A stretch of DNA of 64,000 nucleotides from Pseudogymnoascus verrucosus (lineage: Eukaryota), in NCBI GenBank assembly GCA_001662655.1, contig KV460225.1. The stretch is one strand, 5' to 3'. Below the pieces are notes generated by a model that was not told the origin of the DNA, did not search any database, and was given only the letters and a program-made list of their open reading frames with translations. A program made the position numbers and the translations under genes. Below, piece by piece: positions 34,208 through 44,428 of the stretch (the first letter of the stretch is position 1; each line of letters opens with the position of its first letter).

Positions 34208-34614
34208 TTGGCTGTGATGAAGACAGCGAGCTTGCATGTCGCCGAGACGAATTCTGGTCTTAAGTAGTAGCAATGAATGTATCACGATTGACAGACCCCA
34301 CAGACGCAGAGAGTTCAGCAAGCTACATCACATAACACCGTCACACAAACGTCCTCGACCACCACAGTATATCTTCATCTGAAACAACACACACGCCCAA
34401 AACTCTGAAATTAAAAAGTATGATGATAACTACCACGCGAACTACACCCTTTACATGCCCGCCCCCCACCCCACCCTAATACAGTGGCTACCTGTGCCCG
34501 TGAAGTCGCGTCCCTGACCCTAATACCGCGTCTGTATAAAAGAGTTTTTAAAAAAATCGAAAAGAGCGAAGAAGGAAGGATCTGTCGAGTCGTTCGTCTC
34601 TGGATAGAGAGCAT

Positions 34615-35446
34615 TTATCTGGCTGGTGCTGGTCCTGCGCGGGCTTGTTCGCGGCGGCTCCTGGGATTGGGTTAGTAACGAGAAGAAATTGGACAAACTT
34701 GCTGGGGTGGTAAAATAGAAGGGGACATACATCATAGTGCGCGAAGCGAAAGAGATCAAGATCATGAAAGCCCAGTTTGGCAGAATGTTGAAAGCCCAAA
34801 TAACCCATCCGGTGGCGAGATCCAGACCGTACTGCTGGGCAGTGCCGTGGAATGGGTGAAAGTGTCCCTCATACGCCGGCCTCTCCTTCCAGCTCTTAGT
34901 AGCATGAAGCTTCACCATATCCGCCGCCGTAACAGTCGTAGTATTGAAGCCATGAATATGCACCTCCGTCCTCGCCGGCGGCTTATTAACCTCAAAGATA
35001 TACATCAGCGGCGCCCCAGCCGTCCACGAATGACACAAAACAGGCTGGTGATCACAGTTAATCAACCCAAGATGCGGCGCCGTAGGATCCGCCTTGAACA
35101 ACAACGCGCTCTCATTGAACGCCCGAGTCAGTCTCTCGCAGTTGCCCCAGCACGTCTTGTTGCCTGCCGTGAGGAGGACCCACCATTCCTCTGGCCCGGT
35201 GGAGGAGGGCGTCACGCTGTTGAGGAGGGTGGAGCGCCAGTTGTCGAGGGAGAGGATGTCGATGTTTGATCCGCCTGCCTTTGCGAGGGCGGCTTCGGCG
35301 GCGGAGAAGGTGTTGGTGTGCGGAATAAAGGAGTAGGCTTTGTTGAAGTAGTGGAGGGCGGTGTCCTGGAGTTGTTGGAGGGGGTCTTGGGTCTCGGCCA
35401 CGGCGAGGAGGGGGAGGGCGAGGAGGGTGACGGCGGAGAATCGCAT
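34615..35446 (-). CDS. Signal-peptide thioredoxin-fold-like membrane protein; intron 34661-34730
   Basis: Signal peptide, EEWWVLLTAGNKTCWGNC, INCD..PVLCHSW, C-terminal TM, tail MSRREQARAGPAPAR*. Confidence 0.75.
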
Positions 35447-36701: not shown

Positions 36702-38216
36702 TTATTTTCGAGCATCAAGTCGAGGTTCATGCGACAGCGCATTGACGATCTCCTCTAGAGGATCTAATACCTCTTGCAGGAACTCGGCATCCGTAACAAT
36801 GTGATCGCCCTTCAAATTAAGACACCAGGCAACCAGGTCCTGGTATCTCTCTCCAGTTCTTGCACCTAATAGTGGAACAGTCTCTGACAGTTCGTTAGCC
36901 CAGCCAGACGGGTCGGCAAGTGTTATATCCCTAGCTATCTCTCTAAGCGGTTCCCAGAAGCCCACTTCAAGAAGTACCACGCCAAGACTATATATATCAT
37001 ACGTTCTGATATATCTCGGGCTGCTCTTTCCTTGAAGCCTCTCGGGGTGCTGGAAAACATCGAAATCCCAAACAGATCTTACTTCCGTATTTTCTTTGAT
37101 TGCACCTTCCTTGGTCGTTAATGCTTCGCTCCCGCGTATCAGGTCAAAGCCCATGAGGTACGTGTCGTCAAAATCGGGCATGACTTCCCCATGGGGCAGA
37201 GTCGACCGTCGGAGAGCCACGACGCTAGAGGATGTGATGTTCTTGTGGAGGAAACCTGCGGTATGGAGGAAGAAGACTGCTTCAGCAATTTTATGGGCAA
37301 GTTTGAGGCGATCGTCGAGAGGAGAATCGACCTCTGGGAACGGGTCTCCGCTGATCATCGCTTCTAGGGTCATCATCGACATAGTAGGGTATGGCGGTTT
37401 TTGGGCAAAGAGGAACTGATTGCTGTCTGCATGATAGAAGTAAAATTCAACCTTGAGCAACCTGATGTCCGCAGCTGGGTCCAGGCAGTTAAGTGCGGCG
37501 GCCAGTTCACCCATCTCATAGGCCATGCTGTGGAAATTAGGCGTCCCTGGAATCCTTCCTGGAGGAACCCTCCGGCTAGCAAAGATGATCTGCTCAGTGC
37601 CGTACTGGAGAGGCTGCAAGGAGACATCGCCCCTGCGCGTGACCAAAGAGGCAAGTTCGACTGAGTCCTCCAGCAACATATCCCTAACCCGCGTCTGCTT
37701 GGCATTTGAAGCAAGATAAAGGAATTCCTTCAGCCGGTTGTTGGATCTTACTACTGCAGGGAGTCTGGCCTCGTCTCCAGCAGAGGCAGCGGGGATGATA
37801 TTTCTAAGCTCTTTGGGGAGACCTAGCAACCGCACGTCGAAGCGCCTAGTCCATTCGAACATCTCCTTCTCCATCTCTTTCAAATCTGACCGTCTCGCAA
37901 TCCACGCCGCGTGTCTGATGCTGTCGTGCAGCCACCCCTTCCGCTCAATCTTCCATAGAGTCTTTTGTACCTTGCCTACAAACCCGTCGAGGTAAATCGC
38001 GGTCTGCTCGAGTAGCGCTGCATCTTCAGGCGCCAGTTGTTGGCTTGCTTTCACAGCCCCCCTCTGGGCGAAGTAGTCGCTGAGTACTTGTAATACCCGG
38101 ATGTCCCAGTCGAAACGAGTCTTCAGGGATTTCGCCTCATCTGAGTAGGCACTACATGCGTCAAGAAACCGGAGAATAAGGCCACCTGATGTAATGACAG
38201 TTGTGAACACTTCCAT
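36702..38216 (-). CDS. HeLo/HeLo-like domain plus pseudokinase (MLKL-like architecture), intronless
   Basis: Hydrophobic N-terminal helix MEVFTTVITSGGLILRFLD and helical domain; kinase C-lobe RLKLAHKIAEAVFFLHTAGFLHKNI, LMGFDLIR, QHPE, YDIYSLGVVLLEVG; HRD replaced by HKN, DFG replaced by GFD. An upstream in-frame ATG exists at 38282. Confidence 0.85.
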   Translation of the reverse strand: MEVFTTVITSGGLILRFLDACSAYSDEAKSLKTRFDWDIRVLQVLSDYFAQRGAVKASQQLAPEDAALLEQTAIYLDGFVGKVQKTLWKIERKGWLHDSIRHAAWIARRSDLKEMEKEMFEWTRRFDVRLLGLPKELRNIIPAASAGDEARLPAVVRSNNRLKEFLYLASNAKQTRVRDMLLEDSVELASLVTRRGDVSLQPLQYGTEQIIFASRRVPPGRIPGTPNFHSMAYEMGELAAALNCLDPAADIRLLKVEFYFYHADSNQFLFAQKPPYPTMSMMTLEAMISGDPFPEVDSPLDDRLKLAHKIAEAVFFLHTAGFLHKNITSSSVVALRRSTLPHGEVMPDFDDTYLMGFDLIRGSEALTTKEGAIKENTEVRSVWDFDVFQHPERLQGKSSPRYIRTYDIYSLGVVLLEVGFWEPLREIARDITLADPSGWANELSETVPLLGARTGERYQDLVAWCLNLKGDHIVTDAEFLQEVLDPLEEIVNALSHEPRLDARK

Positions 38217-38959
38217 GATATAAATACCTTTTAGTCCGGTCTTGATTTTTAGGCGTGAATCCGTAGTAGGTGACTTGCCCATAAGTGCGGAGATGGCTGT
38301 ATTTCAATCATCCACAGCATGGACTAATTATGCAGCTCATCCTCGTAGGTGATCCTCCATAGCCACTTCCTCTATATTTTTAGCCTTTATAACCAATCAC
38401 TGGTTTACGCGCCAGGATTGTATGCTGGGCGGCCTGTAAAAGAGTTATAGCGGCAGTTGAATCTCCGCTTTTCATGTAGCTAGGCGGAGCCTGTGACGAA
38501 ATCCGGATTCAGGAAGGGCATCGCACCTCTTAGTAAAAGCGTCGCTGGGTCTTCCCTTCGGATTTCTCTTCGTCGCAATCTTAGTCCTATGGAAAGAAAG
38601 CAATATTGCTTTGAAGAATTGTGGCTGCAGCCAGGCTGCAGGAACCAGGCTCTGCCAGTTGTGTCATGGTACCACCGTAAACGCTGGGTATGCTCCCATT
38701 CCGGGCAATTGAGAGCCAGACATTGAGCAACCTGGAGAGCGTCTAGCCCAGCTACGTGGCAACGAAAACAAGTAGATCCTGATCCTCACAAGGCCTCACC
38801 CGCCGTGATCTAGTCGTTCCTGCTTATGCTGTACCACTCTGGCAGCTAAGCGAGGCTAAGGAAACCTGTCAGCCGACTGCCCGCTTCAGAAGCTGCTGGG
38901 TATTACCCTGTCCCACAGAATTTCAACTTCACCTAACTGAACAGGTCACAACTTCATTA

Positions 38960-40630
38960 ATGTTTGCCACGACGACCAGTTTCCCCAAAGACCTTGTGCA
39001 CCATGTTTACACAAGAGACGAAGACCTTCCATTTACACATGATGGCAACGATGCATTCATTGCCAACAGCCGCAACGTCGACAGGGTCAAAAGAACCTCT
39101 GGCTCTGACGGGGGTCTACTGTATGCCCGGAAAACCCTTACAATCGATGAGCGAGGTAAAGAAGGCCCAGTGGCTAAACGAAAACTCCTCGAGGAAGCAA
39201 AAACTCTCCTCCAAGCTCGCCATGGCCACGTCGTGAAACTTATCGAGACGTACTTTTTTGTGTCCGAGCATTATACCCGTTTCGCAATCGTCATGGAGCG
39301 TGCAGATGCGAATCTGGACGTTTATCTTACTCACAGGACGAGTCTCAAGAAAATTAGTCAATTAGCGGGATGGTTTGGATGCCTAGTAGGCGTCACTTCC
39401 CATATACATGGGTTGGGCATACGACACAGGGACATTAAGCCCTCGAATATCCTAATCAAGGGTAAACGAGTCCTCTTGGCAGATTTTGGCATATCAAAAA
39501 TGGGCCTTGGTAAAACGATGCCAACGACGATACCTGCGTTTGCTCGTGAGAGGACAAAGGATTATTGCGCTCCCGAGGTAGAAGATGGAAGCACCCGCGG
39601 TCGGTCAGCGGACATCTTCTCCTTAGGGGCAGTGTTTCTCGAAATGCTTATAGCTCATTCCTATTATCCAGAGCGTCAAAGTCTTGATGACAAATTAACG
39701 TCAGACGGCCATCGTTCTTACGCCAGATCTGTTGATCAGGTGCACCAGTTTATGGACAGAATAGAGCGAGAGTTGCGACCGGACAAGTGGTTCCTCAAAG
39801 TTATCTCACACTGTCGGGCGATGTTACACGTGGAGCGAGATCAACGGCCGTTAGCCGATGAGTTAAATTTGGCTTGGCTGAGCCTGCAGCCCTCAGATCT
39901 CCCGCTGGCTCCTTGCACATGTTTTAGGGGTGTAGACGTATCGGACGACAACAAGCTAGTTGAGCTATGTAGGACTGGTTCACTAGAACAAGTGGAAGCC
40001 TACCTCGCTAGTGGACGAGACCCGAATACCTTAGGAGCGATACATCAAGCCTCTGCCCGTGGCTGTGGGAAAATTGTGCAGAGTTTGCTACTGCATAAGG
40101 CTGATGTCAACCTAAGGGACTGTAGCGGGCAGACGGCACTTCATTGTGCCGCTGGATATGGGCACACGGAGGTGGTTGGAATGTTACTAGAGAAGGGGGC
40201 CGATGTTCAGCTAAAGGATGACGAGGGACAGACAGTGCTTCATTGTGCGGCTGGACAGGGGCATCGGAGCGTGGTTGAATTATTACTAAGCAAGAATGTT
40301 GATAATCAGGCAACGGACGCAGAGGGACGGACTGCACTTCACTTTGCGGCTAGAAGGGGACACGGCGACGTGGTTAGAATGCTGTTAAGCGGAGGCGCCC
40401 ACACTGAAGTAATGGATGCTAAAGGGCGGACAGCACTTCATTTCGCGGCTGGATATGGGTCTGAAAAAGTGGTCGAAATGCTTCTGAAGGCTGTAGACAA
40501 ATATGTCATTGACGCACAAGATGTAGACGGACAAACGGCGCTTCACTTTGCGGCTAGAGGAAAGCAAGCTAGAGGGAAGTACGACGCAGTAAGAAAAATG
40601 CTAATAGAAAAGGGGGCCGATCCACGCTAA
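38960..40630 (+). CDS. Ser/Thr protein kinase with about seven C-terminal ankyrin repeats, intronless
   Basis: YARK, EEAK, HRDIKPSN, LADFGISK, YCAPE and ADIFSLG motifs; repeated G(Q/R)TALH.AA..G ankyrin units. Confidence 0.92.
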   Translation: MFATTTSFPKDLVHHVYTRDEDLPFTHDGNDAFIANSRNVDRVKRTSGSDGGLLYARKTLTIDERGKEGPVAKRKLLEEAKTLLQARHGHVVKLIETYFFVSEHYTRFAIVMERADANLDVYLTHRTSLKKISQLAGWFGCLVGVTSHIHGLGIRHRDIKPSNILIKGKRVLLADFGISKMGLGKTMPTTIPAFARERTKDYCAPEVEDGSTRGRSADIFSLGAVFLEMLIAHSYYPERQSLDDKLTSDGHRSYARSVDQVHQFMDRIERELRPDKWFLKVISHCRAMLHVERDQRPLADELNLAWLSLQPSDLPLAPCTCFRGVDVSDDNKLVELCRTGSLEQVEAYLASGRDPNTLGAIHQASARGCGKIVQSLLLHKADVNLRDCSGQTALHCAAGYGHTEVVGMLLEKGADVQLKDDEGQTVLHCAAGQGHRSVVELLLSKNVDNQATDAEGRTALHFAARRGHGDVVRMLLSGGAHTEVMDAKGRTALHFAAGYGSEKVVEMLLKAVDKYVIDAQDVDGQTALHFAARGKQARGKYDAVRKMLIEKGADPR

Positions 40631-42589
40631 AGGATTGCAGTGGACGGACAGCGTGTTGGCATGGAGAGTGATGACAGCACACTGATGTCCCAGGGAAGGT
40701 ACGCGGGAGAGAACCGCACTATGCGCTTAACGTACCTGATGAGTTGCATTTGATAACGGCATGCGGACTGTAAAAACGCCCGCTTATGGAAGTCCTCGCT
40801 CGATTGACCTTCTAGGGCTTTTTCCTAATCGCGGAATGTAGTATTTTAGATGCATTCCATCTCTGATTCTGGTATATCAAGTGGAACTCTTGTGAAATCG
40901 TTACTTAGTTTCTATTGCATCGTTTGGCTTGGTTCTAGTCGCTCTAATTTGCTACTTAGGCGATAAATAAGACTGACTTCATTACGTCTCTATCTGTGAG
41001 TAGGAAACAATGACCACCTCGATATCTTTTCTAATGAATCCAACAGATAGATAATGAAGTGGCCCTTGTGTAGACAGTATAGATGTTTCCTTTGCAATAT
41101 ATTGCATTAAAGAAGGCTTAACAATTGAAACCTTTATCTCTGGCTTCATCCGCGGAAAGCGAATCGGTTTTTAATGACCCTATGCTGATTTAATGAATGC
41201 GCTACGTTTCCCTCAATGCTGTGCGTCCGGCGTAGTGATTTTCTATGCATAAAATTCTAGTCGAGTAGGTTGAGAATAATAGTAACAGAGTTAAAATAAA
41301 AACGAGGTAAATAGCTGTAAAATATTCCACTACTTTGCGTAGTATATAAGGTTGATTCCGTGAATTCGCCCTATGCCTATTTCCCTACCCTGGTGATCTT
41401 GTAGTGCTAAGACGACGGTCTCACAACCTATAAGTTTTCCTTTGTTCGTTTCCGTGGCTAAATAAACATGACATACACAGTGAAAAGCGAGTGTGCTTGC
41501 TCGCACACTTGCTGAATAATATTTTCCAACTCAAATTTGGAAATATAGCCCCACGATCTACTAGTCGTCTTGCACAGTGGGTTACATTGGGAAGGCCTCA
41601 TTCCGGGCGACTATGGCCCTCTCGATACCCTGGTGTATTTGATCCTGATCCGTTCTCTCAGCCAGCTCAGAGCAATTTGGAGAAGGTGGTCGAGCTTGAA
41701 CAGGGAATGTCAAAAATTAGTTATATCAGGCTGTTCATGACCTCTTACCTTTTAAGATCGAATGAGTGCCTCAAAACGAAGGTGATCGGCAACAACCTGC
41801 AACACAAGGATGGTCGCGGCCGAGATGGCCTTCGGGAGAAATCTCCGCTTCGATCTCAAATCGGCCTTGCTCTTGAAGAATCTAGACTAAGGCAGACGTC
41901 GCTGCTAGTACCTGTAACTCGCAACGTTGCAAAATGTGCTGCGCAGAGTCTACGAAGGGCCGGCCACTGCAAGGCATTTTTGCGATAGGCTAGGTCGTGT
42001 GCAAGGCACTGTCAAGGCAGACTACATATGCTGCAGTCGCAAGAGAGGGACAGTCAGGGGGGGGAGTGGCCCTTTTATAGAACTCGAAAGCGGCGACAGG
42101 CACTTCCACGCGCGTTCCCCAATTAAGCGGGCGCCAAAACCTAGGAGGTTGAACACCACGATCTAGATTATAGGAGATAAGAGAGAGTACGTGTTAAAGT
42201 AGTTAGGAAATTATTTGGCTAAGTAGTCTATAGTGTTAGGGTTAGAATACTTATATATATAAAGAGGTATTATATTTAATTATTATAGATAGTTAAAGTA
42301 TTTTTACGCAATGTGCGGCACGGATACCAATATACCCGTGGTATCCGGGTATATCCTCGAGTATATACCTACCCGGCGATATTTTGGGAGTATCTAGAGT
42401 ATCTGGATACTCTCGAGTATATATCTAGATACTTGCTAAGAGTTGCTAAGCCTAGCTAAGGCTTCATTTTACAGACGTCATCTCAACGTTATGCTTAAAC
42501 TATAGCCTTATAAGCATACTAATACCCTTAATATCTAGTTGTTACTTAGGCTATTTAGTAATTCTAGTAAACACTATAGCTTTAGAATA

Positions 42590-44428
42590 ACGTATTTCAC
42601 GGGCGAGCTGGTCACACGGGCGAGCTGGTCACCAAAACACCAAAATTTGACTATTACTACTACTACTACACCACTACCCTACATAATAACCCTTATTCGA
42701 TCGTAATTAATTCCTGGCGCCTCTCGCACGTACGGGTATTATGTCCTATTTTCTCACATCGGCCACAGCGCTTCTGTCGGCCTATAGAACCCATCTGCCG
42801 AGTAGTCTCACTTGCTACCTCCGTACGGACTTGAGCTTCAACCTCAGCACTTTGAAGTATATCCTCTGCGTCTCGAACGGAAAGGCTTCCCCCTTGCATT
42901 ATACGTCTCTTACGCTTCCTATCCCTCCTCTTTTTCTGTTCATTTGCAGCTTATAGAGCCTTAACTTCTGCCTTAAGTAGAACAGCAGAATGCATCATCA
43001 TTTCTGCCCCTTTAACAAGGCAGCTAATAGCATCATTAATTGAGGTAGGAGAGCTATTCTGATGTCGTACGATGCAGTTCTTAATGTGCTCTGTCTGAAA
43101 GTTTAGCTCCCGTATAGTTTAGGGAGTCTTTGAAGTCCAATTGTTACTCTTAACTATAGGAGGAGTTGGAGTTCTTAAGTGTAGATTCAAGTAAGAGAGG
43201 ACAATCTGTAGCTCGTACGGAACTAGCCCTATAGCTCGGAATCCGCTCTTAATGTTCTGCTCTGTAAATGTAGCTTTAAATGCTTCTTTAAATGTAGAGA
43301 GAAACTCAAGCTTCGTGATATGATTTAGCCTGTTCCGTATGAAGGTTTTAATCTAACGTCCGTACGAAAGCTTTAGTGGAGTAAAGCAGCTAACGTTAAG
43401 TGGTTGAAGAATGTGCGATGAGTGTAGTGGCATATAGAGGGTAATTATCTTCCGTTCTATGCAGTAGTGTTGAAATTGAGCTAAGAGGTAGCTCTTATGT
43501 CCGTCGAGAATAAGAAGGCGATAGGTTCTGATCGAACGACTATTTGTATGTCGATTGAAGTGTTGAATCTACTTATACCTAATTAAATTTAAAGTCCACC
43601 CATTCTCACTTAGTGTAATCACCTAATCGTCTAGTAATCCCAACTCCTTATACTAAGCTGAGAGGTAATTCTGTGCCTTAAAAATGATAAACGGCAGGAG
43701 TGCCCATCCGTACGAATTAACACCTTAGATAATTGACACCCACTCTCTATTCCCTAGCTGTATAGTCTTTAGACGGCTCTTTGCTTCTAAGCTTGTGACT
43801 ACCTTTACAGTAGCAATAACTCCCATTGCAAAACCTGCTTCATCAAAGTTGTAGATATCCTGCTCTAATATGCTATATTTTGTAACTGTGTTTCGTACGA
43901 GAGAGAACCACTCTTGAATTATCTTAGGATCTTCGCATTTTGCTCGCTTGTAGTCGTACCTCCGACTAAACTTTGATTTGATTTCCGTACGACGCTTTAT
44001 AAAGCTAGTAGCCTAGTTTATCCTAACAGGGCTCTCGCCTCGTTCGGAGAGTAGAAGGTCTGCCATTTCTTGCACAGCTTGTAGCTAGGGTGGAAATCCG
44101 CGTGAATCTAGGTCGAGGATATACTGAACAAGAGCTGACTCTTCGTACAGAGTTAATTTTCGTGAGTTAGGGGTAGAGTTGCGTCGACAAGTAACACCGT
44201 TAAGTCGCGTCCGTAGCGACTCAAATGGGACGTCGTACGACATTGCAGCAGCTCGAATACTCTTAATATTGCCTTCTTTAAGTGCTTTAATAGCAAGAAT
44301 AATTCTACCCTCTTAATTAGAGGATTGGGCTTGTGTTGGTTGTGGCATGTTAACTCTTGTTAAGTTGACGCGTTTTGGTGTTTTGGTGACTAGCTCGCCC
44401 GTGTGACCAGCTCGCCCGTGAAATACGT
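42590..44428 (-). mobile_element. Tc1/mariner pogo/Fot1-type DNA transposon, RIP-mutated
   Basis: TIRs of about 56 bp starting ACGTATTTCACGGGCGAGCTGGTCACACGGGCGAG, TA target duplication, length 1839 bp. Confidence 0.95.
42693..44348 (-). pseudogene. Fot1-like DDE transposase with many premature stops
   Basis: HTH start EGRIILAIKAL..SIRAAAMSYDVP, YNFDEAGF, LLILDGHKSY, HILQPLNV, C-terminal CGRCEKIGHNTRTC; TAA/TAG at expected Gln/Trp/Arg codons. Confidence 0.9.

Follow-up and report, generated by a model that had tools for sequence, protein, structure and literature searches.

A divergently transcribed pseudokinase gene and kinase-ankyrin gene in Pseudogymnoascus verrucosus: a conserved fungal pair and candidate RIPK3-MLKL-like module

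Background

Do a protein kinase gene and a pseudokinase gene that lie head to head in a fungal genome work together, and could the pair be a switch for cell death? The question is raised by a locus of Pseudogymnoascus verrucosus at positions 36,702 to 40,630 of a 64,000-nucleotide stretch of contig KV460225.1 (assembly GCA_001662655.1), which is referred to below as the window. One of the two genes, gene A, encodes a predicted helical head followed by linker helices and a kinase fold that lacks the catalytic Asp, and the other, gene B, encodes a Ser/Thr kinase with ankyrin repeats. An initial annotation had proposed that the ankyrin kinase senses a non-self cue and phosphorylates the adjacent pseudokinase, releasing a HeLo domain in a necroptosis-like cell-death switch with no NOD-like receptor (NLR) and no amyloid motif. 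Current explanations of fungal death executors of the HeLo and MLKL type invoke NLR receptors and templating by amyloids. The present analysis confirmed what had been observed at the locus and partly supported the interpretation; the comparative genomics make it very probable that a kinase is coupled with the A-type pseudokinase.

Linkage of the two genes across fungi

Adjacent homologues of genes A and B, with consecutive locus tags, were found in Coleophoma crateriformis (BP5796_03614/03615), Cadophora sp. (IFR05_007327/007328) and Diatrype stigma (SLS62_008046/008047; Sordariomycetes, Xylariales), three species that span the Leotiomycetes and the Sordariomycetes. Nine metagenome loci contained gene A at an identity of at least 45%, and six of these included its 5' end together with at least 1.5 kb of upstream sequence. 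Since loci L004 and L005 are identical in sequence, five distinct loci were testable, and in four of them a kinase-ankyrin gene was positioned head to head with gene A. The place of gene B in the fifth locus, L003, was occupied in the same orientation by a 566 amino acid lectin-kinase (L003:3678-5378, minus strand, upstream of the gene A orthologue at L003:6001). This protein combines an FB_lectin domain (PF07367, E value 1e-41) with a Pkinase domain that has HKD and DFG, is active-looking, and is only about 30% identical to the kinase domain of gene B, as though the arm presumed to be the sensor had been exchanged, ankyrin repeats for a lectin.

No other open reading frame (ORF) between 26 and 50 kb of the window recurs in the orthologue loci, which indicates that the A/B pair has been kept as a unit. 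Since other genomes show the pairing again with different flanking genes, the adjacency is more than chance, and the expectation that the pair would stay linked across distant and patchily distributed fungi was borne out by the four metagenome loci and the consecutive tags of the three species. Fourteen further A/B pairs were inferred from contigs of equal length, with confirmation for two only (L002 and L004), and across 18 putative pairs the pairwise identities of A and B were correlated (r = 0.66, from 153 comparisons that are not independent of one another). The named genera with gene A homologues belong to the Leotiomycetes and to the Sordariomycetes (Xylariales, Hypocreales, Glomerellales and Diaporthales), with the addition of Lasiodiplodia and one Penicillium, and on these names the distribution looks patchy.

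The 7.9-kb contig of locus L002 also contains, adjoining its A/B pair, a second B-like kinase-ankyrin gene (L002:771-2783, plus strand), a 671 amino acid ORF with the catalytic loop HGDIKPTNV.

Gene A, a pseudokinase with a predicted helical head

A search with gene A identified 121 homologues at E values of 0.001 or below. The AlphaFold2 model, built on 55 homologues (predicted local distance difference test score [pLDDT] 83, predicted template modelling score 0.82), consists of four long helices, four short helices and a complete kinase fold (Table 1); the short linker helices were of lower confidence once the head was folded alone. Pfam returned only sub-threshold kinase matches for the gene A product (Pkinase, E value 0.0092), yet in the model the kinase fold of the C-terminal domain is not in doubt. 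Its alignment with BRAF (6u2h_D) gave a Z score of 21.7 and a root mean square deviation (rmsd) of 3.8 over 270 residues, MET, HER2 and JAK scored nearly as well, and all 999 of the kinase chains compared reached a Z score of at least 8. Foldseek with the same part gave a best E value of about 2e-6, with IRAK4, JAK1 and Pto among the top matches.

The catalytic-loop HRD is replaced by HKN (H324-K325-N326), which was invariant in the 55 aligned homologues and was found by a regular expression scan in 107 of 114. GFD stands in place of DFG, with G356 present in 55, F357 in 49 and D358 in 45 of the 55, and the beta-3 Lys position is occupied by an arginine (Arg215) in 54 of the 55. The product thus has none of the HRD Asp, the DFG metal-binding Asp and the beta-3 Lys of an active kinase, and by these residues it is a pseudokinase unable to catalyze phosphotransfer, as the initial annotation had read it from the HKN and GFD motifs. 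Because the replacements of the catalytic residues are themselves conserved, this domain is a pseudokinase under purifying selection and not a decaying kinase. At residue 367, which falls in the activation-loop segment, 51 of the 55 sequences have Thr and the other four Ser, and this residue is a candidate phospho-acceptor.

The gene A family profile matched the MLKL pseudokinase (4m68) at an E value of 8.9e-4, among other kinases of the tyrosine kinase-like (TKL) group; TYK2, eIF2AK1 and eIF2AK3 ranked ahead of MLKL and IRAK4 level with it, so that in sequence the domain has no special tie to MLKL over other kinases. Forty of the 55 family members touched Pfam DUF7580 (PF24476) at E values of up to 10, the best being 7.3e-7, while the gene A product itself had no match to PF24476 at an E value of 0.1 or below. 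Relatives P0097 (28.1 bits) and P0033 (35.3 bits) reached the 27-bit gathering score of that family, and P0003 (24.6) and P0026 (26.9) were just short of it.

Gene B, a kinase with ankyrin repeats

Gene B, the only source of kinase profile matches in the 64-kb window, matched Pfam Pkinase (PF00069) with an E value of 2.5e-29 and a score of 102.9 bits, the cut-off being 31.7. Each of its K58, E79, HRD, DFG and APE residues was shared by all, or by at least 90%, of 43 aligned sequences, and judged by these motifs it looks active, that is, a catalytically competent Ser/Thr kinase. The C-terminal region matched Ank (PF00023, E value 3.4e-46) in six stretches, and seven repeats were counted by eye, in agreement with the intact kinase motifs and about seven ankyrin repeats that had been described at the outset. 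Orthologues of gene B are 552-578 amino acids long and cover 97-100% of it. The nearest solved relatives of the kinase domain, among the best 60 of 75 matches at E values of 1e-10 or below, were JNK, CDK7/KIN28, RSK and CDK-like kinases, with E values of about 1e-13.

Related loci and their kinases

We also analyzed a distant set of 71 loci, whose products match the gene A pseudokinase domain at 22-40% identity and most of whose scanned ORFs match Pfam DUF7580. A kinase profile derived from gene B detected, in 28 of the 71 loci, a kinase ORF that adjoins the DUF7580-type gene or is fused with it (with duplicates removed, about 20 loci are distinct), and all 16 of the neighbor ORFs scanned matched Pfam Pkinase at E values of 1.3e-11 or below. 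Among the distinct loci the two genes were head to head in nine, convergent in three, in tandem in three and fused in five. This association suggests a function for DUF7580.

The partner kinases form three families that track three branches of the pseudokinase. Those of the gene A branch have the catalytic loop HRDIKPxNI and carry ankyrin repeats. A second family, with 25-49% mutual identity, was present in 12 distinct loci (L015, L024, L026, L031, L041, L050, L051, L060, L062, L065, L066 and L069); it has HGD or HCD in place of HRD and mostly K[IL][SA]DFG, and adjoins DUF7580-type genes, several of them with HeLo. The third family consists of fusions, with five single ORFs in which an active-looking kinase, a helical region and a DUF7580 pseudokinase follow one another (L016:2598-4871, L017:4387-6756, L019:4285-6723, L021:3-2936 and L043:4165-6588) and with the motifs HHD[LI][KR]PxNI and LADFGL. 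The fusion of L021 has C-terminal TPR repeats in addition and retains HKD in its second domain.

An N-terminal HeLo domain certified by Pfam was found in seven ORFs of the distant loci (L015, L049, L052, L061, L065, L066 and L069) and in protein P0119, and these relatives reach PF24476, with the exception of L061 and L069. Six of the seven loci have an adjacent kinase, and the seventh has short flanks. The association with a kinase extends to relatives whose heads are certified HeLo domains, and, judged by L003, the presumed sensor arm of the partner kinase can be exchanged.

A proposed mechanism and its alternatives

We propose that genes A and B may constitute a two-gene signaling module with the design of RIPK3 and MLKL in animals. 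Gene A would be the MLKL-like member, with a four-helix head opening on a hydrophobic helix, a helical linker and a pseudokinase, and the ankyrin repeats of gene B would act as a protein-binding or sensing arm. Gene B would bind the pseudokinase domain of gene A and phosphorylate it, with Thr367 as a candidate site, and phosphorylation would switch the pseudokinase so that the helical head is freed to oligomerize on a membrane and disturb it. A regulated form of cell death, or a defense response akin to it, would follow. Activation by phosphorylation is suggested by the analogy with RIPK3 and MLKL and by the conservation of Thr367, and the binding, the direction of control, the attack on the membrane and the death that would follow are inferences as well. 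The architecture of gene A, its fold-level resemblance to known executors and the sister systems with a true HeLo domain at the same place make it slightly more probable than not that gene A is a membrane-directed executor. The complete chain, in which an MLKL-like executor A is activated by B in a cell-death or defense module, is our preferred but tentative reading, and falls a little short of probable. More doubtful, but worth stating, is a widespread necroptosis-like system of filamentous fungi, independent of NLRs and amyloids, in which dedicated kinases with interchangeable sensor arms (ankyrin repeats or a fruit-body lectin), or kinases fused in cis, would directly switch on pseudokinases whose HeLo or HeLo-like four-helix heads attack membranes and of which the window pair would be one branch.

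Several results weigh against this proposal, and most of them concern the head, the weakest part of the case made in the initial annotation. What stood of the description of the head as HeLo-like was the hydrophobic N-terminal helix and a predicted four-helix bundle. No other run of 19 residues in the gene A product is as hydrophobic as that in the first helix (Kyte-Doolittle 1.42), and this helix is conserved across the homologues, with the consensus MDxFGTxxTAGxLIxxFLxAC. The head was also folded separately (pLDDT 73) and compared exhaustively with 48,161 chains by VIA-align, from which the best 50 rows were considered. These included the coiled-coil (CC) domains of plant MLA13 (Z 9.7) and Rx (Z 8.7), MLKL (4btf residues 2-117; Z 8.2, rmsd 3.0, 99 residues aligned), HET-S (2wvo; Z 7.9, rmsd 4.2, 132 residues), NRG1.1 CC-R (Z 6.4) and a wheat CC resistosome (Z 6.2), with the plant CC, MLKL four-helix bundle (4HB) and HET-S domains each aligned from their own residue 1-3. 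Against these matches, Z scores of 8-10 to MLKL, HET-S and the CC domains lie below the value of about 13 that helical bundles can reach through a common arrangement alone, and the top row was an unrelated sperm microtubule protein (Z 11.0). A Foldseek search of the head against the PDB, of the kind that had been suggested as a check on the HeLo assignment, gave no match below an E value of 0.59.

The sequence comparisons of the head were no more favorable. None of the 55 gene A family members matched the Pfam profiles HeLo, PigL_N or SesA in the head, even at E values of up to 10, the profiles tested being HeLo (PF14479) and the HeLo-like families PF17111 and PF17107. A profile-profile comparison by hhalign against a thin HeLo profile of eight sequences scored 19.2, compared with 17.9 for the reversed control, and one of 30 column shuffles also reached 19.2; this comparison is not significant. 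In favor of a HeLo-like head, the nearest named protein-language-model clusters were HeLo (0.91), followed by PigL_N and SesA, but the Atlas heuristic, which is based on five of the ten best matches sharing a family, marked the HeLo lead as probably wrong. Among 1.84 billion proteins the head profile retrieved 93 cluster representatives at E values of 0.001 or below, nearly all of them either proteins of about 500 amino acids with the architecture of gene A and the head at the N terminus, or fragments. In none of the 93 did the head accompany an NLR or another domain known from death pathways, and there was no HeLo annotation in the 26 representatives scanned. An hmmsearch of all ORFs of the 80 loci with the head profile recovered the orthologues, L010, L013 (3e-7) and L055, and no HeLo-bearing ORF. 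Since the representatives share one architecture and none of those scanned is annotated as HeLo, the head forms a small, separate sequence family, a newly defined N-terminal domain family that would as yet have no Pfam representation. The predicted fold is compatible with HeLo, 4HB and CC domains, but a claim of homology is not carried by this evidence.

Gene B departs from the proposed model in two respects. No RIPK was present among the 60 solved matches to its kinase domain described above, and by sequence it is neither RIPK-like nor near the TKL kinases. The ankyrin region, which had been likened to the sensors of fungal immune receptors, does consist of repeats, yet these show no tandem repetition at the DNA level. 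The sensor arms of fungal NLRs typically show homogenization of their repeats at this level, and the gene B region therefore lacks that signature.

These results leave room for an alternative in which A and B do signal together as pseudokinase and kinase but are not a death switch. One partner would be a scaffold or allosteric regulator of the other, either way round, in a pathway that serves stress responses, development or nutrition, and the helical head would provide oligomerization or localization and do no damage to a membrane. The linkage data support coupling and are silent on the output, HeLo-type families are not matched by the head in sequence and its fold score is in the generic range, and the kinase-pseudokinase fusions resemble tandem regulatory arrangements, all of which such a pair would explain. 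Against it are the paralogous systems in which a Pfam-certified HeLo domain occupies the same position and has the same association with a kinase, the conserved hydrophobic first helix beginning at residue 2, as in membrane-targeting heads, and a patchy distribution which, with the putative transposon remnant nearby among housekeeping genes, suits an accessory defense gene. On balance we consider a pair of this kind, and such a role for its head, rather unlikely. The control might also run in the opposite direction, with gene B silencing A by constant phosphorylation or binding, so that loss or inhibition of B, for example by the effector of a competitor or parasite, would free A in the manner of a guard or toxin-antidote system. 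Tight linkage in variable orientation is expected where the loss of one partner is harmful, and the strict conservation of the gene B active site would also fit; the exchange of an ankyrin for a lectin sensor arm, however, is more natural for an activating receptor-kinase than for a constitutive inhibitor, and we regard this possibility as improbable.

It could finally be argued that A and B are neighbors with no direct functional coupling, brought together by a shared bidirectional promoter or inherited as a small accessory block. No promoter motif was found to be conserved in the spacers: no 8-mer was common to at least four of the six orthologous spacers, which are 583-1545 bp long. The 32%-identity gene A paralogue of L010 has no kinase within 6 kb. 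Kinase genes in an ascomycete genome have an estimated background density of about one per 250 kb, and an enrichment judged against this estimate is provisional. Yet the two genes are still adjacent in different fungal classes although every other ORF around them has changed, a non-orthologous lectin-kinase has taken the place of gene B in L003, and three families of kinases accompany three branches of pseudokinases, in some cases as single-ORF fusions. Neighbors of no functional consequence to each other would be a very improbable source of this pattern, and the proposal of a kinase that controls an MLKL-like pseudokinase is the one with which we compare known systems below.

Gene boundaries and genomic setting

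Positions of the features discussed are given in Table 1; residues of gene A are numbered from the start codon at 38216, and the motif coordinates were verified by translation.

Table 1. Features of the gene pair, with positions in the window
Feature	Position	Strand	Description
Gene A coding sequence (504 amino acids + stop)	36702..38216	-	ORF, with start supported by homologues; helical head, linker helices, pseudokinase
Predicted four-helix bundle, residues 1-130	37827..38216	-	Helices 2-22, 26-55, 63-92, 98-130
N-terminal hydrophobic helix, residues 2-22	38151..38213	-	EVFTTVITSGGLILRFLDACS; helix in both models
Linker ('brace'-like) helices, residues 135-195	37632..37814	-	Helices 135-144, 154-166, 170-180, 186-195 (full-length model)
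Pseudokinase domain, residues 203-495	36732..37610	-	Kinase fold in model
HKN in place of catalytic-loop HRD, residues 324-326	37239..37247	-	Aligned opposite HRD of LIMK2
GFD in place of DFG, residues 356-358	37143..37151	-	After model strand 351-354
Thr367, activation-loop segment	37116..37118	-	Between GFD and HPxR motif; candidate phospho-acceptor
Divergent spacer	38217..38959		743 bp; presumed bidirectional promoter region
Gene B coding sequence (556 amino acids + stop)	38960..40630	+	Ser/Thr kinase with ankyrin repeats
Gene B kinase domain, residues 48-302	39101..39865	+	Pfam match; K58, E79, HRD156-158, DFG175-177, APE204-206
Gene B HRD	39425-39433	+	From translation
Gene B DFG	39482-39490	+	From translation
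Gene B ankyrin domain, residues 327-556	39938..40627	+	Pfam Ank; about 7 repeats

The long gene A ORF, read from its first ATG, spans 36702..38282 on the minus strand and would encode 526 amino acids. Because 52 of the 55 aligned homologues start at the position of residue 23 of this ORF, a Met, translation most likely begins at 38216, which gives the 504 amino acid product and the 743-bp spacer. Hypothetical protein V499_08768 of Pseudogymnoascus sp. VKM F-103 (Leotiomycetes, Thelebolales) shares 99% identity with the gene A product. The public model of V499_08768, of 526 amino acids, takes the upstream ATG and so has 22 extra residues (MGKSPTT..., window 38217-38282, minus strand); its annotated start is probably too far upstream, the orthologues starting at the next Met. 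Orthologues of gene A were recovered as single tblastn segments across residues 1-495, as expected of an intronless gene, and contigs of runs X1 and X2, from a close relative, were collinear with both ORFs and had no joint inside either. The two intronless genes diverging from a 743-bp spacer were in this way found to be as first described.

One X1 contig starts within gene B, continues beyond the stop codon of that gene and leaves out 51 bases bounded by GT..AG (40996-41046, plus strand), either a possible intron in the 3' untranslated region of gene B or an indication of a downstream transcript. That X1 and X2 are RNA is a guess only, and the 51-base skip would fit spliced RNA. The spacer region from 38172 to 39067 was uncovered in X1 and X2 and covered in X12, a difference that is not usable as evidence.

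The neighbors of the pair are housekeeping genes (MRG, Cnl2/NKP2, RRP12, Sec6 and a Mug190-like gene). About 2.5 kb downstream of gene B, ORF pieces riddled with stops (43119-44312, minus strand) lie in a stretch of lower G+C content (0.41 at 42-44 kb) and, read by eye, look like a transposase of the pogo/Tc5 type. One transposase-like piece (43356-43568) is 48% identical to L010:11551-11742, and L010 carries a gene A paralogue. An ORF of 308 amino acids with a signal-peptide-like start, MRFSAVTLLALPLLAVA, is located 1.3 kb downstream of gene A (34520-35446, minus strand); it had no Pfam match and is not conserved beside the A/B pair in the other loci.

Comparison with known systems

Vertebrate MLKL resembles gene A in the order and sizes of its parts (four-helix bundle, in gene A a predicted one, linker helices and pseudokinase), and also in that its pseudokinase has lost the catalytic Asp and carries G-F-acid where active kinases have DFG. 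As with RIPK3 and MLKL, a separate active kinase is at hand, for A and B a partner by genome position, although the RIPK3 and MLKL genes are not adjacent, unlike A and B. There is no detectable orthology between MLKL and gene A, whose pseudokinase is as close to IRAK4, LIMK, eIF2AK and TYK2 as to MLKL; the beta-3 Lys is an Arg in gene A, and gene B, unlike RIPK3, is not RIPK-like and carries ankyrin repeats. If the proposed mechanism is correct, the control logic that leads from a kinase to an MLKL-like protein, the step by which animal necroptosis is defined, would be used in fungi as well as in animals.

The fungal HET-S and HELLP executors, which NLRs trigger by way of amyloid motifs, share with gene A an N-terminal helical head that opens with a hydrophobic helix, and a partner gene next door. 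They differ in that the C terminus of gene A is a pseudokinase instead of a prion-forming motif, and its partner a kinase instead of an NLR; nor does the gene A head match HeLo, PigL_N or SesA in Pfam, and its family was not found on NLR-sized proteins. The overall architecture of the HeLo-pseudokinase relatives with DUF7580 (PF24476) is that of gene A, which differs from them in that its product reaches neither PF24476 nor HeLo, the head being a separate family.

In the literature, the legend of a figure in a 2025 review points to proteins in which a HELL domain is combined with a kinase or pseudokinase domain, in a manner reminiscent of MLKL (PMC12881547); the accessible portion of that review makes no mention of a neighboring kinase, and in its section 18 calls for exploration of fungal HeLo/4HB proteins. 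A 2022 survey of NLR N termini, as far as its accessible text goes, reports MLKL-like heads on NLRs only (PMC9815663). A search that covered few subscription journals and no supplements yielded no paper in which a gene for a HeLo-type pseudokinase is described as paired with a kinase gene, and no paper on DUF7580. The conserved pair described here is a concrete two-gene system that can be expressed, mutated and assayed.

Outside animals, the plant MLKLs are described as immune proteins with a HeLo domain, a brace and a pseudokinase (bioRxiv 681015, PMC10951266), the same three-part architecture as gene A, to which their sequence relationship is that of the kinase fold only; a dedicated neighboring kinase is not stated in the accessible text of these two sources. 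The two-gene allorecognition locus het-V of Podospora anserina, according to the accessible part of its description, consists of het-Va, which encodes a SET-domain methyltransferase, and het-Vb, which encodes an MLKL-like head joined to a TUDOR domain (PMC9262711). Het-V differs from the A/B pair in the class of enzyme and in the reader domain, and it is a proven incompatibility locus, while A and B are known from sequence alone. In both, an enzyme is encoded beside a protein with an MLKL-like head or its putative counterpart and a domain tied to the chemistry of that enzyme, in het-V the methyl-binding TUDOR, and by this analogy het-V is a precedent for pairs of an enzyme and an executor.

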